Shown in pieces: positions 30,861-46,391 of a stretch of 64,000 nucleotides of DNA; within the stretch, counting starts at the first letter, position 1, and each line of letters opens with the position of its first letter. A program made the position numbers and the translations under genes. Source of the stretch: Bacteroidales bacterium (GTDB lineage Bacteria > Bacteroidota > Bacteroidia > Bacteroidales > VadinHA17); NCBI GenBank assembly GCA_041686075.1, contig JAWLEO010000017.1, positions 12,256 through 76,255 of the forward strand, read 5' to 3'. Under the pieces are notes generated by a model. That model made no database searches and was not told the origin of the DNA. It was given only the letters and a program-made list of their open reading frames with translations.

Positions 30861-34663
<3,803 letters not shown>

Positions 34664-34881: not shown

Positions 34882-36198
34882 TTATGGATTCCCCTGTCTT
34901 TTATTTTTTTCAACAAGGTATTTAAAGGGGTATATGAATCTTTCAATCAACCTCATATCTTCGGTTATTATTTCAGCCCTGCCTGACATATTCTGGGTGA
35001 AATCAAGTTTTTTACCATAAAATGTTGATAAGCCCTCAGGTAGATTAACATCCAGCACATATGAATTATCCTGTGGCACCAGTGATCGTGTTTCCACTTT
35101 TCCCTGCACCATTCCATATTCCAGGTAAGGATATCCTTCAAGCTGGATATTTACATCCTGTCCTTCTTTCACCTTACCCGAGCCTGCCATAGGGATCATG
35201 ATGCGGGCAATTATTTCATTTTCACCTTCCGGCACAACGGTCATCACTGTTTCTCCCTCTTTTACAGTTTGATTTTCTGACCAGTACCTTGTAAAAGTCA
35301 CATTACCGTCAATAGGTGCAAGCAAAAGGTAATTTTGTATCCACCACTCCATTCTTGCCTTGAGTTTCATAAGCTCATCATCAAGATTTGAGAGTAATTT
35401 TTGTCTTTCTTCTTCGCGTGCGGCAGTCAGATCCTGTAATTCTTGTTTTTTAGATGCCAGATCAATGCGCCTTGAAGCAGCTTCCAGGACAACCTGTACA
35501 AGTTCAATTTTAAGGGAATAAAATTTCTGTTTCGAATTTTCGAGTTGAGCATCAGGTAATATGTCCTGAGTATGGAGAAGTGAGTCCCTTAGATATTTTC
35601 TCCTTTCCACTTCAAGGTTAGACCCTGTAAGGGCTTCTTTACTTTTTAACTGCCTTATATAATCTTCAATGCTTTTTATCTCCTCCTTTACAGCCCCGAT
35701 TTTTTTTCCGTAGTAATCAATCTCAATATGATTCTTATAGTTATAATAGCTTTTACGAAAAGCCGAATATTGATCCTGTATCTCTCCAAGAACAGAATTA
35801 TCGGGCAGTTGACGGTTAATAGCCTTATATCTTGATGATATATCCTCTGTTTTTATGGAGTCGAGCATTGAACTCAACCACTGTATGCTTTCATATGAAG
35901 CGGTGGTCTCCATTACTCCCAGGATGGATCCTGCAGTCACCTGTTCACCATCGCTCACAAAAAGGTGTTCAATTTTACCGGAAATCCTTGCCACAATATT
36001 TGCAGGTGGTTTTTCTGTTGTTATTACAGCTTCGGCCCTGATTATATATGGATATTTTATAAGCCATGAAAATATCAAAAGTAATATGATTACTGTGGCA
36101 ACTATAGCTGTACCCCATCTAATAAGAGACCCGGGCGGTTTATTCATTATATCTTCCACGGGTCTTGAGTACCTTATTTCATGTAATTGTCTTTTCAT
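34882..36198 (-). CDS. HlyD-family membrane-fusion (periplasmic adaptor) protein of a peptide exporter
   Basis: Single N-terminal TM (WGTAIVATVIILLLIFSW), a long coiled-coil centre and a beta-barrel C-terminus. I chose the ATG at 36198 (the track start at 36207 is TTG). It lies 5 nt downstream of the ABC gene stop. Confidence 0.7.
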   Translation of the reverse strand: MKRQLHEIRYSRPVEDIMNKPPGSLIRWGTAIVATVIILLLIFSWLIKYPYIIRAEAVITTEKPPANIVARISGKIEHLFVSDGEQVTAGSILGVMETTASYESIQWLSSMLDSIKTEDISSRYKAINRQLPDNSVLGEIQDQYSAFRKSYYNYKNHIEIDYYGKKIGAVKEEIKSIEDYIRQLKSKEALTGSNLEVERRKYLRDSLLHTQDILPDAQLENSKQKFYSLKIELVQVVLEAASRRIDLASKKQELQDLTAAREEERQKLLSNLDDELMKLKARMEWWIQNYLLLAPIDGNVTFTRYWSENQTVKEGETVMTVVPEGENEIIARIMIPMAGSGKVKEGQDVNIQLEGYPYLEYGMVQGKVETRSLVPQDNSYVLDVNLPEGLSTFYGKKLDFTQNMSGRAEIITEDMRLIERFIYPFKYLVEKNKRQGNP

Positions 36199-36203
36199 AT
36201 ACT

Positions 36204-38390
36204 TCAACTACCAAGTTCCAGCTGTTCACGTACCAGATTATAATATACACCTTTTTTATCTATCAGCTCATTATGAGTCCCGCTTTCTATCATACGGCCT
36301 TTATCAATAACCATGATATTATCGGCATTACGCACCGTACTAAGCCTGTGTGCAATTACCAGCACTGTCTTGCCCGAGAAAAACTCATCGAGGTTTTCAA
36401 CTATCTGCTTTTCATTAACGGCATCCAGTGAATTTGTAGCTTCGTCAAAAAACAGGTATTCAGGATTCTTGTACACTGCCCTCGCTATTAATATCCGTTG
36501 TTTTTGTCCCTGACTCAATCCATGACCATTATGCCCTATTCTTGTATTTATCCCCAGGGGCAGCGTCTCCACAAATTCACTTATATTAGCTATTGAGATG
36601 GCTTTGTTTAATTTCTCCCTGTCGATTATATCCACACCGGGACTAATATTATTGGCTATACTATCAGGAAAAATATAACCATCCTGCATTACCACCCCCA
36701 CCCTGCTCCTCCATAATTTGAGGCTTAAGTTTTTGAGGCGGGTGTCACCAACCATTATATCACCTTCAACAGGCTTATAGAATCCGAGTATTAGTTTTAA
36801 TAAGGTAGTTTTGCCGCTACCGCTGGTGCCGACCAATGCAGTAACCTTACGTTCAGGTATCACTATATCAATATCCTTCAGTACATAGGGTGAACGTGGT
36901 CCTTCATATTGGAATGAAAGGCTATTCACATATATACTTTTGTTTGCCGGCAGGCTTTTCACTTTCATTTCCTCTTCTGATTCTTCAGGTTGACTGGAGT
37001 GTACCTCCGAGATCCTGTCCAGGCTCATCCTGGCGTCCTGGGCTGTCCGGAAAAAGACGACCATCTGGTTTACAGGGATATTTAACTGGCCTATAATAAA
37101 TTGCACGGCAAGCATCATGCCGAGAGTCATACTCCCTGATAATACGGCAGTGGCAGCAATAATTGTAATAATAATATTTGAGGCCTCATTAATAAATTTC
37201 CCCCCGGCAAGCTGGTATTGGGAAAGACTCATCGCCTTAACCCTTGTCTTGAAGAGTGAAGCCTGGATATTCTCCCAGTCCCATCTCTTACTTGTTTCGC
37301 TCTGTGTAAGCTTTATTTCCTGTATACCGGTGATTATATCAATCAGCCTGGCATTGTTATCAGACAATTGCTTAAACCTTCTATGATCAAGCTGGGCACG
37401 CGACCGCATGAAAAAGGACACCCAGGCAATGTAAGCAGTTGTACCCGCAATGAAGACAAGCAATATGGTGATATTGTAAATTGCCAGCACGATGCCAAAA
37501 ACCACCAGATTAACAAAGGAAAACAGTACACTTAATGACGTATTACTGAGAAATGATTCGATGCGTTGATTATCTTCTATCCTCTGCAAGAGGTCGCCAC
37601 TTAATTTAGTATCGAAATACGACAACGGCAATGTCATCAATTTATATAGGAAACCTGATATTATAGCCACATTAACCCTTGTGCTTATATGCAATAAAAG
37701 CCAACCGCGTACAAACTCAACTGTCATCCTGCCTATAACCAGGGCAAGTTGTGCGAACAGTATAAGGTAAATAAATCCAAGGTCATTGTTATTTATTCCT
37801 ATATCTATAATCGATTGTGTAAGAAAGGGGAAAATCAATTGTATGAGACTCCCTATAAACAGGCCCAGAAAGATCTGGAAAAAATACTTTCTGTACATAT
37901 TTACATACCGGAAAAGAAAACCAAATCCCGATTTTCTTTTTTTTGTTTCTTCCTGATCATAAAATTCAGGGCTTGGTTGAAGTATCAATACCAGCCCCAC
38001 CTTCTCCTCGTCGATCTTTGTCGTAGCCCAGTTTTTCTCAAATTCATCCCTTGAATATTTTATCAGGCCTTTTGCGGGATCGGCAACATAAACTGTGTTT
38101 TTCTTTATCTTATACACTACGACAAAATGCTTTTGCCTCCAGTGCACAATACAGGGTAAGGGAGTTTCTTCAACCAATTTATTGAAGGGTATGCGCACAC
38201 CTATAGTCCTGAATCCTATCGCCTCCGCCGCCTCGGATATACCCAGGAAAGACACTCCTTCCCGGCTTATGTAGCTCTTTTCCCTCAAATCAGTGAGGCT
38301 GAACTTTTTACCATAAAAGCGTGCAACCATCTGTAGACAGGATGGACCACAATCCATTGCATCTGCTTGCCTTTCGAAAGGGAACGACAT
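36204..38390 (-). CDS. Peptidase-C39-domain ABC transporter (double-glycine leader cleaving peptide exporter)
   Basis: N-terminal RQADAMDCGPSCLQMV (catalytic Cys context) and KHFVVVYKI...VYVADPA (His/Asp context). Six-TM domain. Walker A GTSGSGKTT, signature LSQGQKQR, Walker B LFFDEATN. I chose the ATG at 38390 (track start is TTG at 38396). Confidence 0.85.
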   Translation of the reverse strand: MSFPFERQADAMDCGPSCLQMVARFYGKKFSLTDLREKSYISREGVSFLGISEAAEAIGFRTIGVRIPFNKLVEETPLPCIVHWRQKHFVVVYKIKKNTVYVADPAKGLIKYSRDEFEKNWATTKIDEEKVGLVLILQPSPEFYDQEETKKRKSGFGFLFRYVNMYRKYFFQIFLGLFIGSLIQLIFPFLTQSIIDIGINNNDLGFIYLILFAQLALVIGRMTVEFVRGWLLLHISTRVNVAIISGFLYKLMTLPLSYFDTKLSGDLLQRIEDNQRIESFLSNTSLSVLFSFVNLVVFGIVLAIYNITILLVFIAGTTAYIAWVSFFMRSRAQLDHRRFKQLSDNNARLIDIITGIQEIKLTQSETSKRWDWENIQASLFKTRVKAMSLSQYQLAGGKFINEASNIIITIIAATAVLSGSMTLGMMLAVQFIIGQLNIPVNQMVVFFRTAQDARMSLDRISEVHSSQPEESEEEMKVKSLPANKSIYVNSLSFQYEGPRSPYVLKDIDIVIPERKVTALVGTSGSGKTTLLKLILGFYKPVEGDIMVGDTRLKNLSLKLWRSRVGVVMQDGYIFPDSIANNISPGVDIIDREKLNKAISIANISEFVETLPLGINTRIGHNGHGLSQGQKQRILIARAVYKNPEYLFFDEATNSLDAVNEKQIVENLDEFFSGKTVLVIAHRLSTVRNADNIMVIDKGRMIESGTHNELIDKKGVYYNLVREQLELGS

Positions 38391-38529
38391 AGCCAATAAT
38401 AGTTAAGCCTGTAAATATATCTATTATTTGATTCTATTCAAACATAGTGCTCTTACAGCTTATTATTGATATTAAATCATTGAGTTAATCCTTTGGAAAT
38501 AGTATATTTGCCTCAAATATTACTATTAA

Positions 38530-39096
38530 GTGTTAAAAAAACACTCTGATAAGAAATTAATAGAGGGAATACGAAAAGGGGACGACAAATCTGTTAATTA
38601 CCTCTATGAATCATTTTTCGATACCATAAAATCTCATGTACTGAAAAATACAGGAACGGAAGATGATGCATATGATATATTCCAGGATGCCCTGATGGTA
38701 CTTTTCAAAAAGGTACAGCTCAATCACCTTGATGAAAATACTGATATCAGAGCTTATGTCTTTGGTGTTTCCAGAAACTTATGGTATGAGCATCTCCGAA
38801 GGAAGAGGAAAAGTGTAGAAATGAATGAGGAATTGGTTGACGACTGTGATCCCTCGAAATTGCTTGATACACCCCTGGAACAAATTGTGCAGCGTTCTTT
38901 TCTTAAACTCAAGACTGAATGCCAAAAAGTCCTCAATATGGCAATTAAGGGATATGAATACAGTGAGATAGCACGTAAAATGAAATACAAATCAGAAGAA
39001 TATGCGCGTCGAAAAAAGTATCTGTGTAAGGAAGCACTTATTAAAATAGTAAAAGCCGACCCTGAATACAGTGACTATACAGACCTGGATTTGTAA
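38530..39096 (+). CDS. ECF-like sigma-70 family RNA polymerase sigma factor
   Basis: Region 2 (DAYDIFQDALMVLFKK...YVFGVSRNLWYEHLRRKRK) and region 4 HTH (YEYSEIARKMKYKSEEYARRKKYLCKEAL). GTG start. A TATATTTG -7 box lies at 38503-38510. Confidence 0.75.
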   Translation: MLKKHSDKKLIEGIRKGDDKSVNYLYESFFDTIKSHVLKNTGTEDDAYDIFQDALMVLFKKVQLNHLDENTDIRAYVFGVSRNLWYEHLRRKRKSVEMNEELVDDCDPSKLLDTPLEQIVQRSFLKLKTECQKVLNMAIKGYEYSEIARKMKYKSEEYARRKKYLCKEALIKIVKADPEYSDYTDLDL

Positions 39097-42080
39097 TAAT
39101 ACCAGCCAGCAAAAAAGAGGATGACAACAAGCATTGCCATTAGCAAATACCTTTTAACAGGAAAATAGACCGGGGCGTCATTGCCCATTATCACCAGGGT
39201 GCTCCAGAAATATGGGTGTGACCTCATCTGATCTGCATCTTCCAGGTAGTCCATTCTTGCTTTACGCAACGATTCACTTTTTGTGAGTCCTTTCTTAAGA
39301 TTATAATAAAAATCCTTAACTATATCGCTCCCGGAGCGGTCATCCACCTCCCACAAAGACATTATCACACAAGGACTTCCGGAATAGAAAAATCCCCTGG
39401 CCAGGCTCATAACGCCCTCACCGGCCTGTAGATAACCGGTACCGGTATTACAGGAACTGAGAAAAACCATTTTAGCTTTAATAGGTATGTTGTAAACCTC
39501 ATAGGTATTAAGCATTCCATCTTCAAGGGTATCGTTTTCCATGTTGAAGAACATCTTAGAGTACATAGGTTCATTATCGTTCAACCGTGTGTGCATGGCA
39601 AGGTGGATCAGGTCTCCTTCGAGTACCTTTGATTTAAAAACGCTTTCAGTGGCCTTATCATCAATATACAGTTTCCCTCCAAGCAGTTTATTTATATATA
39701 TTGCTTCCTCCCTTGCTCCAGGTATATTGGCCAGGCTGTCACGGTAATATTGCCTACTTTCCATAAGTTCTTCAATATCTAAACTCCCGCTATAGTCCGG
39801 GGCGAAAGTCAGCACATTGTTAGATGCACTGCGGCGGGACGATAATGCTTCAGACAGTAATGTACCGGAGTATTCATATATTATCTCGAAATCCTTGATG
39901 AGATAAGTCAAATGACGGTAATTTACTTCCTTATACCCGGGCATTTCGCTTATCAGTGTTTCAAAGGGTATATAAGAAAGCAGATCATCTGCAGATATTA
40001 TTAACCTATCGGAGTTCAAGTAATCCCGGACAGGGAGTAACAGCTTTTTATACAGATTGAAAGCCAGCTCAACATACTCCCTGTACTGTTCGCCTGCACC
40101 ACTTACTATTGCCGGCCCGGTCAGAATATCTCTGAAAGTAAGGATCATTTCCCTGAATTCATCACCCACGGGCACCGATTTAATCTTAAAACAGTCTTTG
40201 TTTATAAGAAATATATATAAAATACTGTCAGACAGGTAGTATTCAATGAAGTTGCTATTGCTGGTAATACTGTTTCGTATATCATCTACAGTGCTTACCG
40301 ATGTATTATATTTCAAGTTATAATACCTTGGGTACTCCTTTTCAAAAACACCTACAAGGGAATCATATTTTGCAGATGCCAGCGCGCTCAAAATATGGTA
40401 ACGGTCAATAAGTTCCCTATCCGGTTTTATTTTTGCTGATTCATTGTATATAACCTCGTTGTAGTCTCTTATATCACCAATCAGTGCCCTTTCAATTGCG
40501 GCTAGATCGGGCGGGAGGTGGAAATTCATTGCCCTGATATTCCTTGTTGCAGTTAGGAGGCCGGCAGCTTTTGACTTTTCTGAAATTGCAAAAGCCCGGT
40601 CAAGGTACTTTTCTTCACCGGTAAGATTGAACAGCTCATTTAATATGGACAATGTCATATCATAAGCATTGATATACCGTCCTGACAACATGCTCCTGCT
40701 ATCGTCCTGCTGTATCCTGAGCCTGGTGCTTTCAATATTTTCTATAGCTTGCTCAGCTGCGTTTAAAGCACCTTTGAGATTCTGTATGTCATGTCCCACC
40801 CTGTATGTTTGATATAATATCCTGCTTTTGTGCATGAATGATGCCGTCCTGATCTTTGATGACAGCACCAGGGAATCATTAATTATATCATTGATATATC
40901 TTAAAGCTTCTGCATATCTGCCGGTATTATACATCAATCGTGATAAATACAGGGTGGCCTCACTTTTAACTTTGTTATCCTGCGGATTACCGGACATATA
41001 TGATTTAATAATGCCTGACATATCCCCTGCCCTATCATAATCCTTTCTGTAATACATCAGAAAGTCACAAAAAGTCAGTAACTGCACAATGTAATCTCTA
41101 CTCCCTTCTCCATATTCATTTTCAGCTTCTTCGACTGCTAATAATAAATAATCTTCTGCCTTATCCAGCATTTCTATTTCAGCCAGTAAATAGGCATAAT
41201 TCTCATATACCGAATTAAGAGTCCTTCCCCTGAATCCTTTTGAATCAATTAATTTCAACGCTTCCCGGAAAAAATAATCTGCCCGGTCCAGGTTTTCAAG
41301 CTCATAATTACACACAGCCAATGAATTATATAAGAGTAAAAGCTTGGTGGGATCGAGGCCTACGCTTTCCCCGGCAAGGGAATATGCAATTTCAAAGTTT
41401 CTATTTGCCCTGTTATAATCAAGGTTATTGATATATGACACTCCGGAATTATAATATAGATCAGCCAGCATCCCTCTCGCAATTTCATCTGGCTCCCTTT
41501 CCACAATCTGTATACCCCTGAGTGATGTTGATAAGGCACGTTCATACATGTTTAAATCAATATACAAAGCCGAAAGATTGAGTAAGGTTCTTAAGAGAAA
41601 GGGTGAAGCCATTCCAAAAAGTTTTTCCCTGGTGGAAAGAGCTATTTCGAGATTTACACGAGCCTCCTCAGGCCTGCCTGTATACATGTACGAAAGAGCC
41701 AAATTGCTTCGAGCCCTTGCATAAATATCATCAATACTATCTGAAGCAATCCTGTATCTTATAGACTGGACCAGCATTTCAATTGCCTCATTGTATGAAT
41801 TCTTTAAATAATTATATGTTCCGGCATAGTAATAACAATCCGATATAAGAATGCTATCGTTGACGAGGCCAGAGTCAAGGCAGGTGCGTATCCATTCATA
41901 ATATTCCCCTGCTTCCGGACTGCTTTTCAGCATTGCTGATTTGAAATTATCGAGTTTTATTATTATTAGGGTATCTCGCCTGGCTCCATGATAAATATTA
42001 CTGGCTGTTGATTTTATGCCCGAATTGAAACAAAAGACAGCACTAATCAGTATGACAGTATATCTGAATAAATCTTTCAT
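39075..42080 (-). CDS. TPR-repeat CHAT-domain (caspase-like) protein with N-terminal signal/anchor and C-terminal TM helix
   Basis: Long array of TPR-like repeats. The C-terminal CHAT core has LIHLAMHT (His) and VFLSSCNTGTG (Cys) and ends HPYFWSTLVIMGN. The C-terminal TM is YLLMAMLVVILFFAGWYYY. The N-terminus is MKDLFRYTVILISAVFCF. Confidence 0.8.
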   Translation of the reverse strand: MKDLFRYTVILISAVFCFNSGIKSTASNIYHGARRDTLIIIKLDNFKSAMLKSSPEAGEYYEWIRTCLDSGLVNDSILISDCYYYAGTYNYLKNSYNEAIEMLVQSIRYRIASDSIDDIYARARSNLALSYMYTGRPEEARVNLEIALSTREKLFGMASPFLLRTLLNLSALYIDLNMYERALSTSLRGIQIVEREPDEIARGMLADLYYNSGVSYINNLDYNRANRNFEIAYSLAGESVGLDPTKLLLLYNSLAVCNYELENLDRADYFFREALKLIDSKGFRGRTLNSVYENYAYLLAEIEMLDKAEDYLLLAVEEAENEYGEGSRDYIVQLLTFCDFLMYYRKDYDRAGDMSGIIKSYMSGNPQDNKVKSEATLYLSRLMYNTGRYAEALRYINDIINDSLVLSSKIRTASFMHKSRILYQTYRVGHDIQNLKGALNAAEQAIENIESTRLRIQQDDSRSMLSGRYINAYDMTLSILNELFNLTGEEKYLDRAFAISEKSKAAGLLTATRNIRAMNFHLPPDLAAIERALIGDIRDYNEVIYNESAKIKPDRELIDRYHILSALASAKYDSLVGVFEKEYPRYYNLKYNTSVSTVDDIRNSITSNSNFIEYYLSDSILYIFLINKDCFKIKSVPVGDEFREMILTFRDILTGPAIVSGAGEQYREYVELAFNLYKKLLLPVRDYLNSDRLIISADDLLSYIPFETLISEMPGYKEVNYRHLTYLIKDFEIIYEYSGTLLSEALSSRRSASNNVLTFAPDYSGSLDIEELMESRQYYRDSLANIPGAREEAIYINKLLGGKLYIDDKATESVFKSKVLEGDLIHLAMHTRLNDNEPMYSKMFFNMENDTLEDGMLNTYEVYNIPIKAKMVFLSSCNTGTGYLQAGEGVMSLARGFFYSGSPCVIMSLWEVDDRSGSDIVKDFYYNLKKGLTKSESLRKARMDYLEDADQMRSHPYFWSTLVIMGNDAPVYFPVKRYLLMAMLVVILFFAGWYYYKSRSV

Positions 42081-42304
42081 ATAAAAAGTTATATGCTAAA
42101 AGCTATCAAATATCAAAATAAGAACTCAAAAAGCCAAAAAAATACCTCAATCTATTTAACTGTATATCTGCCTTTTACGAACCATCTCAAAAAAATGTTC
42201 ACTTTTTTATGTCACAAAACGGTTAAATACGACATGTATATATGTAACGTAATTAGATAACCCGATTAATTTAAAAAAGTGTAACCAACAAAAAATTTAG
42301 AAAA

Positions 42305-42445
42305 ATGAAAACACTGAATCAGGAAAATTTTGAGAATTTCAAAGACTTTTTACTTTCAGACGAAGAAATGATTCTTGTTCGAGGTGGTGACGATGATGGC
42401 GACAGAGGAATGACAGTACCTCCTATCACAGAACCTGAAATCTAA
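42305..42445 (+). CDS. Double-glycine-leader precursor peptide (46 aa; predicted 18-aa acidic mature peptide)
   Basis: Not in the ORF track (below its size cutoff). My translation is MKTLNQENFENFKDFLLSDEEMILVRGG|DDDGDRGMTVPPITEPEI*. Positions -12 to -1 (LSDEEMILVRGG) fit the LSxxELxxIxGG leader consensus. A C39 ABC exporter lies 3.9 kb away. Confidence 0.65.
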   Translation: MKTLNQENFENFKDFLLSDEEMILVRGGDDDGDRGMTVPPITEPEI

Positions 42446-42727: not shown

Positions 42728-43465
42728 ATGAAAAAAATTGAGTTCACCCGCTTTATCGAGAGATATCTCGAGGGCAAGATGCAAAGCTCCGAAAAAAAGT
42801 GGTTCGAGGCGGAGCTTGAGGGCAATCCAGGTTTAAAGAAAGAACTGGAATTGCGCAGGAATGTAGACAAATATGTTGACAACCAGGATGCTATAGCATT
42901 CCGACAAAGCCTGATGAATGCTGAAGCCAGGCACAGAAAAGCTGCTGCCAGAAAAAGGGCTGCCACAAAGCAGATAATCCAGTACGCGGCTATATTTGCG
43001 GGCTTGATATTAATCGGCGCCGTCGGCTTTTATATTTTCAGGAATGACAACAATGGTGACATTGCAAGTACTTTTAAACCTGAGTATACTCCGCTTGCAT
43101 CATACCGTTCATCATCCGCAGAGCTGGATAAGGCATATACCAGGGCAACAGAATACTATAATTCAGGCAATTATACTGAAGCTATCAAGTGGTTTAATAT
43201 GATAGTGAACCCGGACATGCAGGTTGAATTCCTTAAAGGCTCATCCCATATGCAAATCAGTCAGTATATCGAAGCCATAGGGTCATTCACCAAGGTTGTT
43301 AAAGATAATGATAACCTCTTTATTGAAGATGCCAGGTTTTACCTGGGTGTTTGTTATATCCAAACAGGTCAGGAAAATAAGGCAAGAGAGTTGCTGGAGG
43401 ATATAATCAACTCTGAAAGCAGGCACAAGAAAGAAGCAAGAAAACTTCTAAGAAAAATCAACTAA
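42728..43465 (+). CDS. Single-pass membrane protein with periplasmic TPR domain (anti-sigma-factor-like)
   Basis: The cytoplasmic N-terminus FIERYLEGKMQSSEKKWFEAELEGNPGLKKELELRRNV is the pattern seen in Bacteroidota anti-sigma-like proteins. TM helix IIQYAAIFAGLILIGAVGFYIF. C-terminal TPRs (YNSGNYTEAIKWF, FYLGVCYIQTGQENKARELL). Confidence 0.55.
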   Translation: MKKIEFTRFIERYLEGKMQSSEKKWFEAELEGNPGLKKELELRRNVDKYVDNQDAIAFRQSLMNAEARHRKAAARKRAATKQIIQYAAIFAGLILIGAVGFYIFRNDNNGDIASTFKPEYTPLASYRSSSAELDKAYTRATEYYNSGNYTEAIKWFNMIVNPDMQVEFLKGSSHMQISQYIEAIGSFTKVVKDNDNLFIEDARFYLGVCYIQTGQENKARELLEDIINSESRHKKEARKLLRKIN

Positions 43466-43491: not shown

Positions 43492-44319
43492 ATGTTTATG
43501 ACTTTTGGAAATAATATGGAGAAAGAAAGAAGACATAGTGAGAATGATAAGTCAGAAAATATAAATCCTGTACATAATACCGATATGCTGAATACTCCTT
43601 CCATATTAACCGGCTTATCTCACGAAGTGCGAACTTACATGAACTCAATAGTAGCATTTACCTTCCTGAGCAATAATGATAACTGTACGGCAGAACAAAG
43701 GAATGAGTATAATAAGCATATCATGAATTCATGCGACCAGCTAATTACATTATTTGATAATTTTCTTGATTCAGCTTTAATTGATTCCGATGAACCCAGG
43801 ACAACCATCACCAGATGCGAGCTTCGGTCTTTCATGAAAGACCTTCTGAGTGATTTAAAAAATTCAATCAGCAGGTTCGACAAGAAAAAGGTTACACTGC
43901 TGCTGGATGAACGATCCGGGAATGATTCCATGTTCATTGACAGGGAGAAGATTAATCGGGTTTTGAGAAATCTCTTTTTCAATGCGCTGGAAAATACGGA
44001 ATCAGGATATATTAAAATGGGTTACAGGAAGCAAAAAAGCAAGGTTGAATTTTACGTTATTGATTCAGGCAATGCTTACACTAAGAACCGGGAACTGCTT
44101 ACCTGTGAAGACCTAACTAAATACATTGGTGAACACCAGAACACATTTACCACTGTGTCATTCTTATTTTCACAAAAACTCATTGAAAGCATGAACGGTG
44201 AATTATGGATACGGCCAAATGGTGTGGACGGGACTGCTATGTATTTCTCGGTCCCTGACCACACTAATGCTATAAAAAAGAATAAGTCTGAAAGTATTTC
44301 ATCGAGAATCGCAATCTGA
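43492..44319 (+). CDS. Soluble, sensor-less histidine kinase (HisKA + HATPase_c only)
   Basis: H-box LSHEVRTYMNSI, N-box RNLFFNALENT, G-box-like VIDSGNAY. No TM or sensor domain. No response regulator in the window. Confidence 0.6.
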   Translation: MFMTFGNNMEKERRHSENDKSENINPVHNTDMLNTPSILTGLSHEVRTYMNSIVAFTFLSNNDNCTAEQRNEYNKHIMNSCDQLITLFDNFLDSALIDSDEPRTTITRCELRSFMKDLLSDLKNSISRFDKKKVTLLLDERSGNDSMFIDREKINRVLRNLFFNALENTESGYIKMGYRKQKSKVEFYVIDSGNAYTKNRELLTCEDLTKYIGEHQNTFTTVSFLFSQKLIESMNGELWIRPNGVDGTAMYFSVPDHTNAIKKNKSESISSRIAI

Positions 44320-44408: not shown

Positions 44409-46391
44409 TTATTTTGATATTTTCAGTATGCGTATATCGGTGCGCCTGTTTTTTCTTCTTCCTTCTTCATTGGTATTGTCATAGAGTGGAACTGCTTCAC
44501 CATAGCCTTTATAATGAAGGCGATCAGGAGATATACCGCGTTTTACGAGATAATTTTTCACAGCCAGCGCACGTTTCTCGGAGAGGACAAGGTTATGTTC
44601 ATCAGATCCTGTTGAATCAGTGTGTCCTCCTATCTCAACTACCAGGTCTTCATTGCTTGCAAGCAAATCAAAAAGTTTTTCCAGCTCGGGTAAGGATTGA
44701 TCACGCAGCTCCCATGAATCAAGGGCAAAAAATACATTATGCAGAGACATCTGTTGTCCAACCTGTATAGGGCTGAGGGAGATAGTTTTTTCAAATGGTT
44801 CAATTGAACTGTGTTCACCTTCCAGCATAAAATTCTCTGAATAGAAAAGGTAGTCTTTGCTGCTAACATTTATTCCGTAATTCTGACCTGTGGGTAAGCA
44901 TACCAGGAAATTACCTCCTGAATCGGAAAATGACTGAATCACTCGTTTACCTGTACTGAGGTTTATCAGTTCATACGTAGCTTTTAATGGCCTGCCCGTA
45001 ACTTTATCTATAACACTTCCTTTCAGGTAAGACACCGGGTCAGGCCTGAGAGATTCAGGCATTTCAAAATAGAACAGGTCCCTACCCTTCATTGTATTTA
45101 TTTTTGATGAGAAATAAGCAACTTCTCCCGAGGAATTGATTATAAGTCCTATTTCATCTGTCTGTGTGTTTATTGGATAGCCAAGGTTTTCAGGTTCTGA
45201 CCATGTACTGTCTTCTTTGTTAAATCTCGACATAAAAATATCAAAACCTCCCATACAGGGTCGACCATTAGATGAAAAATACAATGTTTTACCATCAAAG
45301 TGAATGAAAGGAGACATCTCATCACCCGGTGTATTGATCACCTCACCCAGGTTCACCGGCTCCGACCACCGGCCGTCTTTAACCTGGTTACTCACCCAGA
45401 TATCCATCCCCCCATAGCCACCAGGGCGGTTACTTACAAAGAAAAGTTTTGAGCCATCAGATGAAAGAGATGGTTGTGATTCCCAGTTAGCTGTATTTAT
45501 CGGTCCACCAATATTTATACCCTTCTTCCATCCCTTATCTGTCCTTGCTGAATAGTATATATCACAACTGCCTTTACCATCCTCCCTGTTGCATGCTGTA
45601 TAATACATATAATTACCAGCCGGTTCGAGTGTCTGAGCACCTTCATTATATGATGTATTCAACGGTGGCCCTGCATTTCTGGCAACAGTCCATTCACCGT
45701 CAATCCTGTAACTGTAATAAAAATCCTCCTGGTACTTCTTACCCATCAGGCTACTGCTTCGTATCGTATTTTGCCTGGTAAAGAGCAACATATTATCGTC
45801 TGCAGTTATCGCCGGCCAATATTCATCATCACCGGTATTAATTGATTCCCCAAGATTAACAGGATTAAAATCAACAGGACTCTTAATTGCTTCCAGCGCA
45901 AAATCACAATCCCTGATGTACTTTCTTGCTTTTTGTGCATTAATGGATTTTTGACCTGTCAGATCCAGGTATAATGAGAAACTGCTTCGTGCTCCCGAAT
46001 AATTACCGCTAAGGAATTGCACCTCCCCATATCCGAACCAGGCCGGGATAAAGAAGGTGGAATCAATAGTTAATGCCTGGCGGTAGGCATTGGCTGACTG
46101 GCGGTATTTAAGCATATCCTTTGATAGCTCAGCAAGCAACAGGTGGGCTTCAATGAATCCAGGGTCTTTCTCAACTGCATCAAGAAGATGTCGCTCAGCT
46201 TCTTTATAATTAATAAAATCGTAAGCTTGCTTACCATCGTTATATGCCTTCAGGGCTTTATTTGATTTTGTATGAAGCTCCTGCGACAACAGACAGTATG
46301 GCTGACCAATAATAATAAGCAGCAACAAAACCCTAATAAGAGTATTTAAGGTATACCCATGTATTTGTGACTTTGAATTGATATTGACCAT
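44409..46391 (-). CDS. OmpA-family protein with TPR, TolB-like beta-propeller repeats and C-terminal OmpA peptidoglycan-binding domain
   Basis: The C-terminus IGGHTDSTGSDEHNLVLSEKRALAVKNYL is the OmpA_C motif. Repeated W..P.NLG..IN motifs indicate WD40-like/TolB repeats. N-terminal TPRs. Confidence 0.8.
   Translation of the reverse strand: MVNINSKSQIHGYTLNTLIRVLLLLIIIGQPYCLLSQELHTKSNKALKAYNDGKQAYDFINYKEAERHLLDAVEKDPGFIEAHLLLAELSKDMLKYRQSANAYRQALTIDSTFFIPAWFGYGEVQFLSGNYSGARSSFSLYLDLTGQKSINAQKARKYIRDCDFALEAIKSPVDFNPVNLGESINTGDDEYWPAITADDNMLLFTRQNTIRSSSLMGKKYQEDFYYSYRIDGEWTVARNAGPPLNTSYNEGAQTLEPAGNYMYYTACNREDGKGSCDIYYSARTDKGWKKGINIGGPINTANWESQPSLSSDGSKLFFVSNRPGGYGGMDIWVSNQVKDGRWSEPVNLGEVINTPGDEMSPFIHFDGKTLYFSSNGRPCMGGFDIFMSRFNKEDSTWSEPENLGYPINTQTDEIGLIINSSGEVAYFSSKINTMKGRDLFYFEMPESLRPDPVSYLKGSVIDKVTGRPLKATYELINLSTGKRVIQSFSDSGGNFLVCLPTGQNYGINVSSKDYLFYSENFMLEGEHSSIEPFEKTISLSPIQVGQQMSLHNVFFALDSWELRDQSLPELEKLFDLLASNEDLVVEIGGHTDSTGSDEHNLVLSEKRALAVKNYLVKRGISPDRLHYKGYGEAVPLYDNTNEEGRRKNRRTDIRILKISK

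Follow-up and report, generated by a model that had tools for sequence, protein, structure and literature searches.

DdvA of Myxococcus xanthus is a transmembrane anti-sigma factor with a periplasmic TPR-CHAT region of ∼900 residues, the structure of which was determined by cryo-electron microscopy in 2024 (PMC11506125; PDB 8rot). It controls an island of CRISPR and cyclic oligonucleotide-based antiphage signalling system (CBASS) genes, and self-cleavage of a linker equivalent to the one considered below has been proposed to precede the action of RseP (PMC11506125). DdvA-like proteins have been reported in Myxococcota and one Comamonas only, and in craspase the ligand-activated TPR-CHAT protein Csx29 cuts an anti-sigma-like protein to release a sigma factor of the extracytoplasmic function (ECF) type (PMC11506125). 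Caspase-family proteases outside the cytoplasm have been barely studied, and DdvA, the sole characterised periplasmic TPR-CHAT protein, has no known signal or substrate. Here, a 64,000-nucleotide stretch of a Bacteroidales genome (contig JAWLEO010000017.1; hereafter the window) was analysed computationally, following an initial annotation that had read the same DNA from its sequence only. The subject is a gene at 39075..42080 on the minus strand, which is assigned as a TPR-CHAT protease gene from its open reading frame (ORF), Pfam CHAT and TPR matches, an AlphaFold2 model and Foldseek. Its product is the third member of a conserved module, the others being an ECF sigma factor and an anti-sigma-like protein predicted to cross the membrane once.

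Predicted topology and catalytic centre of the TPR-CHAT protein

The ORF begins with ATG, encodes 1001 residues and is the sole CHAT gene of its genome. All of the strings quoted in the initial annotation were located in the translated product, with MKDLFRYTVILISAVFCFNSG forming residues 1-21 and LLMAMLVVILFFAGWYYY residues 979-996, the motifs LIHLAMHT and LSSCNTG supplying H826 and H830 and C877, respectively, and KSRSV forming the tail. Pfam PF12770 matched residues 672-967 (39180..40067, minus strand) with an E value of 1.1e-51 and a score of 176.4 bits against a cut-off of 24, spanning positions 3-289 of the 289 in the hidden Markov model. Judged by this profile, the protein is a full member of the CHAT family (PF12770, clan CD, caspase-like). 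Matches to TPR_12, TPR_2 and TPR_10 fell within residues 60-400. The AlphaFold2 model (pLDDT 86.7, pTM 0.81) comprises a helix at residues 2-18, a disordered segment at 19-30, an all-helical region at 27-604, an alpha/beta domain at 610-966 and, after a gap of ∼9 residues, a terminal helix at 975-1000. The TPR/helical array thus modelled (residues 27-604, 40269..42002, minus strand; predicted to be periplasmic) amounts to ∼580 residues, roughly in line with the 650 or so residues of TPR-like repeats first estimated. The modelled fold is of the separase/craspase-type TPR-CHAT architecture, in which a helical superhelix is followed by a caspase-like alpha/beta domain within one chain.

Topology was judged by in-house heuristics based on hydropathy (Kyte-Doolittle, 19-residue window, level 1.5) and charge, together with conservation across the family. 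Hydropathy of at least 1.5 was restricted to the two ends of the protein, at residues 4-22 and ∼969-997; the C-terminal segment peaked at 1.94, and the highest internal window (residues 154-172) reached 1.34. The N-terminal segment has the parts of a signal peptide (residues 1-26, 42003..42080, minus strand), namely an n-region, MKDLFR, a 12-residue h-region, YTVILISAVFCF, and a c-region, NSGIKSTA, a designation that draws on hydropathy, the family pattern and the model. Sec-type cleavage is probable between STA26 and S27, a position deduced from the sequence. Since 12-13 residues of h-region are too few to anchor a protein stably, the N terminus is best read as a cleavable Sec signal. At the other end, hydropathy and the modelled helix define a C-terminal transmembrane (TM) helix (residues 975-996) with the basic tail KSRSV (residues 997-1001; together 39078..39158, minus strand), in agreement with the TM helix and 5-residue basic tail of the initial annotation.

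Both features are general in the family. In an alignment of 85 CHAT proteins sharing 25-70% identity with the query, an uncharged N-terminal stretch of at least 8 residues was present in 82 (median 13 residues), 70 of which have a net-positive n-region. The typical pattern is a short basic n-region, the h-region, a helix-breaking N, P or Q and then a site such as KA-S, YA-G or NA-S (the hyphen marking the predicted cut), and 55% of homologs carry x-x-A at −1, compared with 25% at random positions. In 84 of the 85, the C terminus has an uncharged run of at least 14 residues and, beyond it, a tail whose net charge averages +3.2. The same anchor, with tail charges of 0 to +8, was present in all 22 strong CHAT ORFs (E<1e-100) of a further set of 20 loci drawn from 20 different families of the order (hereafter the other-family loci). 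By the positive-inside rule, the positively charged tail should stay in the cytoplasm, which would place the preceding CHAT domain on the periplasmic side, and since 82-84 of the 85 homologs retain this layout, at identities as low as 25%, the protease domain almost certainly faces the periplasm. Thus, most of the protein very probably lies in the periplasm, held at the inner membrane by a single helix at the C terminus, and the earlier proposal that both the TPR array and the active site lie outside the cytoplasm is supported by the recurrence of signal peptide and anchor. A lipoprotein was also considered: Cys17 is preceded by A-V-F, and many homologs either have no such Cys or place Leu or Phe at its −1 position. 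The lipoprotein reading was rejected given that no consistent lipobox exists among the homologs.

H826, H830 and C877 (codons of His830 and Cys877 at 39591-39593 and 39450-39452, respectively, minus strand; both checked) are invariant in all 85 aligned sequences, as are many of the residues that surround them. A Foldseek search with the AlphaFold2 model gave as its top matches Csx29 (8eey_B, E=1.5e-15), separase from human and yeast, and DdvA (8rot_A, E=4.5e-12), each with a probability of 1.00. When a CHAT-domain profile was compared with PDB sequences, the sole match, a weak one (E=0.97), was DdvA, and the resulting alignment paired H830 with H862 and C877 with C907, the published catalytic dyad of that protein. 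A profile of the full-length protein returned PDB matches crowded with TPR proteins, and the CHAT half searched as a single sequence gave no relevant PDB match. The dyad, loss of which would have counted against the initial annotation, is therefore intact and in register with that of DdvA. Invariance of the His/Cys dyad and of many neighbouring residues over 85 sequences, down to 25% identity, argues for a CHAT cysteine protease that has retained catalysis.

Linkage to a putative sigma/anti-sigma pair and a peptide gene

The gene convergent with the CHAT gene (38530..39096, plus strand) encodes an ECF-type sigma factor, as indicated by Pfam Sigma70_r2 and Sigma70_ECF and by NCBIfam TIGR02937 (43.3 bits, cut-off 42.9). 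The 3′ ends of the two genes overlap by 22 nucleotides (39075-39096), and sigma and CHAT genes whose 3′ ends abut or overlap are seen again at many related loci, L002, L003 and L010 among them. On the other side of the CHAT gene, positions 42728..43465 (plus strand) encode a 245-residue anti-sigma-like membrane protein, recognised from Pfam TPR matches, AlphaFold2 and gene order. An alignment of 60 such partners (24-74% identity) revealed a common plan of a conserved N-terminal segment, F..FIERY..GEM...E..WF..EL, followed by a single TM helix, a linker in the periplasm and a TPR domain. In the AlphaFold2 model of the window protein, helices at residues 7-15, 20-32 and 34-50 precede the membrane helix (at about residues 83-105), which is followed by low-confidence coil at 106-130 and TPRs at 131-244. 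Given the gene order and this helix pattern, on which the anti-sigma label is founded, we infer that the product may act as a single-pass anti-sigma factor with a periplasmic TPR domain. Within its predicted disordered periplasmic linker, ∼22 residues past the TM helix, the partner alignment picks out Arg127-Ser128 (43106-43111, plus strand; Arg127 at 43106-43108). Among the 60 partners, Arg127 never varies and Ser128 is kept in 90%, and this pair is a candidate site for cleavage by, or docking of, the protease.

The family is large. A collection of 5.8 billion proteins contained more than 320 relatives, mostly of ∼1000 residues and from Bacteroidales metagenome bins, which are annotated merely as "CHAT domain-containing protein", and a scan of one genome per species yielded at least 591 loci encoding relatives of the CHAT protein. 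The family was matched in 68 of 151 genomes in an even sample of the order and in 75 of 201 in a phylum-level sample; exported TPR-CHAT proteins that bear a signal peptide, some anchored and others not, are widespread in Bacteroidota. The best 80 of the at least 591 loci (the close loci) were searched by tblastn with the window proteins, which detected the sigma factor in 72, the anti-sigma-like protein in 62, the exporter described below in 52, the kinase-like protein in 51 and the peptide in 36, many of the misses falling at contig ends. Among the 45 of these loci that are flanked by at least 5 kb on each side, counting genes no more than 6 kb from the CHAT gene, sigma and anti-sigma genes were present in every case (45/45 each), the kinase-like gene in 39, the exporter in 37, the HlyD-type adaptor in 30 and the peptide gene in 27.

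This linkage extends beyond close relatives. Sigma and anti-sigma genes adjoin the CHAT gene in 17 of the 20 other-family loci, mostly as a sigma-then-anti-sigma operon that converges on the CHAT gene, and in other lineages such operons have overlapping stop and start codons. This is the classic arrangement of a cognate pair, of which the gene order in the window is a rearranged version, and we infer that the sigma gene and the anti-sigma-like gene of the window are likewise cognate. The association of the CHAT protease with a sigma/anti-sigma pair, pointed out in the initial annotation, accordingly holds in all well-flanked close loci and in most of the other families sampled. In a second, distant set of 20 loci, sampled from further orders and classes within the phylum, anchored members tended to keep sigma/anti-sigma neighbours and members that end directly after the CHAT domain mostly lacked them. 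Across the 45 CHAT ORFs of the resulting 40 loci, with TM calls corrected by hand for proline-containing helices, adjacency to the pair was observed for 26 of 33 anchored and 2 of 12 anchorless proteins (Fisher p=2.7e-4, uncorrected for phylogeny).

The anchorless sister group (L113-L119, L108 and L112) consists of TPR-CHAT proteins of ∼1000 residues with clear signal peptides, from other orders and classes, that mostly lack adjoining sigma/anti-sigma genes; its members are presumably soluble, exported CHAT proteases. Some genomes encode 2-5 paralogs (L085, G070:C4; L092, G094:C4; L117; L118), which include tandem CHAT genes and repeated CHAT/anti-sigma/sigma trios within 15 kb. Five proteins with an apparent internal TM helix (P0082, P0084, P0101, P0112 and P0113) were not taken to be anti-sigma-CHAT fusions, since wrongly called start codons or the merging of tandem genes would seem to account for them.

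Divergent from the CHAT gene is a 46-codon ORF (42305..42445, plus strand) for a double-glycine peptide, the product of which divides into a leader, MKTLNQENFENFKDFLLSDEEMILVRGG, and an 18-residue core, DDDGDRGMTVPPITEPEI. The leader consensus MKTLN..F.EF.LSNEEMI.VRGG is conserved among related loci. The cores are Pro-rich, 14-20 residues long and usually end in PPxKI, PPVIIEI or PPxTEPEI. Apart from its occurrence in 36 of the 80 close loci, the peptide gene lies divergently, just upstream of the CHAT gene, in 7 of the 20 other-family loci. Upstream conservation also revealed a promoter-like motif, TGTCACAAA-N13-GACATGT (42210..42237, plus strand), which is located ∼70 nucleotides upstream of the peptide ATG and occurs once in the window, with 0 occurrences expected by chance. 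Its general form, TTTTTTCGTGTCACAAA-N13-(C/T)GACATGTA, is common to most of 37 aligned regions upstream of the peptide gene, and a related motif, GG(T/G)(T/C)ACCTTTT-N∼12-CGGAATA, was found in other-family loci. The spacing and the AC and CG cores resemble those of ECF promoters, and the motif is a candidate ECF-sigma promoter. The sigma, exporter and CHAT genes carry housekeeping-type −7 boxes (TAnnTTTG). This difference in promoter type suggests constitutive production of the sensing parts, with the peptide as the sigma-controlled output.

Two genes on the minus strand, identified by Pfam and NCBIfam, encode a C39-peptidase ABC exporter (36204-38396) and a HlyD-type adaptor (34882-36207). 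Together (34882..38396) they likely export the double-glycine peptide, and they remain linked in rearranged clusters such as L062 and L080. Downstream of the anti-sigma-like gene, positions 43492..44319 (plus strand) encode a soluble histidine-kinase-like protein (Pfam HisKA and HATPase_c) with neither a TM helix nor a sensor domain and with no response regulator nearby; this gene travels with the module in 39 of the 45 well-flanked loci and in several other families. The module is flanked by genes for a DUF349 protein (32516-34663, minus strand) and an OmpA-PD40-TPR protein (44409-46391, minus strand), which hold these positions in some 35 of the 45 well-flanked loci of close relatives and do not do so in other families. 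They are probably neighbours by descent and not parts of the system. A role in defence, suggested by analogy with DdvA, was considered and rejected: PADLOC returned no match for the CHAT, sigma, anti-sigma or kinase proteins. No cas genes were present among the neighbourhood genes of the CHAT gene.

A proposed peptide-gated site-1 protease and its alternatives

The reading that we tentatively prefer is that the CHAT protein is a peptide-gated site-1 protease that cuts the anti-sigma linker, although taken as a whole chain of events this proposal falls a little short of an even chance. The protein would be exported by Sec and lose its signal peptide, after which the C-terminal helix would keep it in the inner membrane, with the active site (His830/Cys877) within ∼9 residues of the periplasmic membrane face and the TPR array projecting into the periplasm. 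Upon receipt of a signal, the protease would cut the juxtamembrane linker of the anti-sigma factor, Arg127-Ser128 being the candidate site. Cleavage of this kind would have to occur in trans, since protease and anti-sigma factor are separate proteins at this locus. Most clan CD proteases favour Arg at P1. An RseP-type site-2 protease would complete proteolysis and free the sigma factor; one M50/RseP homolog is encoded in the genome. The activating ligand would most likely be the Pro-rich peptide, exported and trimmed at the double glycine by the C39 ABC exporter and then bound by the TPR array, and the ECF-like promoter of the peptide gene would give positive feedback. So arranged, the mechanism would correspond to the DdvA model split into two proteins, with an echo of craspase. 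The full circuit as a widespread and hitherto undescribed Bacteroidota pathway, in which a C39-exported Pro-rich peptide is read by the TPR array of a tethered protease, the separate anti-sigma factor is cut after its invariant Arg and the ECF sigma factor drives the peptide gene, is a more doubtful proposition. If true, it would represent Gram-negative peptide quorum sensing (cell-cell or self-signalling) by way of a caspase-type site-1 protease and not a two-component system.

Several observations weigh against this proposal. No anti-sigma family was recognised in a Pfam scan of the partner N terminus at E values up to 10, and a fold search with the whole partner model returned only TPR matches (BamD, YbgF and SycD). 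The invariant Arg127 could be a structural or binding residue rather than a cleavage site, and Csx29 does not cleave after Arg. The peptide gene was detected by tblastn in only 27 of the 45 well-flanked loci, and vertical inheritance could explain much of the synteny seen among close relatives. A few anchored relatives (L096, L098, L103, L104 and L122) have no adjoining sigma/anti-sigma pair. Finally, Lys-Arg also stands before the TM helix of the window protein, so the positive-inside argument is clear at the level of the family only.

An explanation of rather low probability is that the protease acts on the exported peptide itself, either maturing it into the active signal or degrading it for turnover or quenching, and that the TPR-containing anti-sigma factor is the peptide receptor. 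That the peptide gene adjoins the CHAT gene divergently in very different lineages, even where the sigma/anti-sigma genes are elsewhere, and that L098 retains the peptide and CHAT genes without a nearby sigma/anti-sigma pair, would fit such a role, as would the Lys or Arg in the middle of many cores (e.g. PIIK-TSIPPIRI and DPTR-PPVIIEI) and the resemblance of the anti-sigma periplasmic domain to the peptide-binding TPR proteins SycD/PcrH. The linkage of the CHAT gene to the sigma/anti-sigma genes (45/45) is, however, tighter than its detected linkage to the peptide gene (27/45), and the cores are poorly conserved, with no common cleavage site evident. Moreover, the anchor correlates with sigma/anti-sigma adjacency, and peptide processing has no obvious need for an anchor. 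We regard as likewise improbable the idea that sensing or scaffolding in the periplasm is the main task of the protein. In this case, its TPR array would contact the TPR domain of the anti-sigma factor or a different envelope protein, proteolysis would be limited to self-processing or to unrelated envelope substrates, and another protease would act at site 1. TPR arrays do mediate protein-protein contacts, the anchorless, signal-peptide-bearing relatives that lack a sigma/anti-sigma pair point to other extracytoplasmic uses of the fold, and for DdvA no cleavage has been demonstrated and the active site is described as incomplete (PMC11506125). Against a mere scaffold stand the invariance of the dyad and of many surrounding residues over 85 sequences and the fact that it is the catalytic domain, not the TPR array, that is held at the membrane, near where the anti-sigma linker would be.

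Two further alternatives concern the ends of the protein. The C-terminal helix and basic tail might be a sorting signal that is cleaved in a sortase-, exosortase- or rhombosortase-like manner, leaving the protease released or attached elsewhere. The tripartite arrangement of G-[ND]-D-x-P-[VLI]-[YF], TM helix and basic cluster does resemble C-terminal sorting signals, but the conserved motif that precedes the helix just marks where the CHAT domain ends, and relatives that lack the helix have it too. In addition, this genome, which is 95.6% complete, gave no match to exosortase (PF09721), and none of the NCBIfam C-terminal sorting-domain models matched the protein, such that this explanation appears very unlikely. 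Still harder to credit is a largely cytoplasmic protein, whether tail-anchored with a non-functional N-terminal stretch or assigned the wrong start codon. The Lys-Arg before the TM helix and the cytoplasmic location of the best-studied TPR-CHAT proteases would accord with it, but the signal-peptide pattern is kept in 82 of 85 homologs, C-terminal tails carry a net charge of +3 to +8 in most relatives, the anchorless relatives also have signal peptides, and DdvA, the nearest solved relative, is periplasmic.

Under the preferred reading of a signal-gated site-1 protease, the protease, its candidate substrate and its candidate ligand are separate gene products, which makes this family a cleaner test system and the idea of CHAT as a site-1 protease directly testable in vitro, and the ligand, at 18 residues, is short enough for synthesis. 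The module occurs in roughly 40% of sampled Bacteroidota genomes, including those of cultured Prolixibacter, Labilibaculum and Ancylomarina, and could represent a common, unrecognised signalling route in environmental and anaerobic-digester Bacteroidales.

Relationship to DdvA, craspase and other regulated-proteolysis systems

The initial annotation regarded a periplasmic CHAT protease beside a sigma/anti-sigma pair as a different mode of use of the domain. As a claim of novelty this has been overtaken by the 2024 work on DdvA, which provides the precedent, but the split architecture does differ. Distinctive here are that architecture (signal peptide, TPR array, CHAT domain and C-terminal anchor in one protein, with a separate anti-sigma factor), its wide distribution and the linked double-glycine peptide. 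In a literature search, neither exported CHAT proteins of Bacteroidota nor CHAT proteins in ECF-group genomic contexts were the subject of any paper found, and no description came up of the split, C-terminally anchored, peptide-linked form or of its breadth in Bacteroidota.

The resemblance to DdvA lies in a TPR-CHAT protein that is predicted to be periplasmic, at the inner membrane and genetically coupled to an ECF sigma factor, and in a disordered juxtamembrane linker as the proposed cut site upstream of RseP. In addition, the modelled partner helices 7-15, 20-32 and 34-50 match in position helices 5-14, 19-29 and 33-46 of the DdvA anti-sigma domain. DdvA is, however, one polypeptide composed of a zinc-binding anti-sigma domain, a TM helix and the TPR-CHAT region, whereas the protease of the window is encoded on its own, with a signal peptide and with an anchor at its C terminus. 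Given that it has no fused anti-sigma domain and is anchored at the opposite end, the CHAT protein is not itself a DdvA-like anti-sigma factor. The anti-sigma factor proposed here, unlike that of DdvA, has a small TPR domain of its own and no Cys/His zinc ligands, and the linked genes are those of a double-glycine peptide and its exporter, with no defence genes seen.

Csx29 of craspase (PDB 8eey and 7y8t), which cleaves the anti-sigma-like protein Csx30, is the best structural match to the CHAT protein, despite a sequence identity of ∼10%. In contrast to the protein described here, Csx29 is a cytoplasmic protein that docks on Cas7-11 and responds to target RNA as its activator, and it has neither a signal peptide nor a TM helix. 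Given that neither cas genes nor PADLOC matches were found, the CHAT protein is not a component of a craspase.

With regard to function, the proposed pathway is reminiscent of DegS/RseA/RseP/sigma-E, in which a membrane-anchored periplasmic protease is activated by the C terminus of a peptide ligand and acts on a single-pass anti-sigma factor ahead of an M50 site-2 step. This likeness is one of functional analogy and not of homology: DegS belongs to the serine proteases, senses through a PDZ domain and is anchored at its N terminus, as opposed to a clan CD cysteine protease that would sense through TPRs and is anchored at the C terminus, and the ligands of DegS are the C termini of misfolded porins, where the ligand proposed here is a dedicated exported peptide. 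The input side resembles the ComC/ComAB-type systems of Gram-positive bacteria, with which it shares a double-glycine precursor, an adjoining C39 ABC exporter with an accessory protein and a probable autoinduction loop. In those systems, the peptide is sensed by a membrane histidine kinase paired with a response regulator; the parts linked here are instead a periplasmic TPR-CHAT protein and a sigma/anti-sigma pair, and the sole kinase has no membrane or sensor domain. The module would constitute a third independent arrangement of the partnership between TPR-CHAT protease, anti-sigma factor and ECF sigma factor, beside craspase and DdvA.

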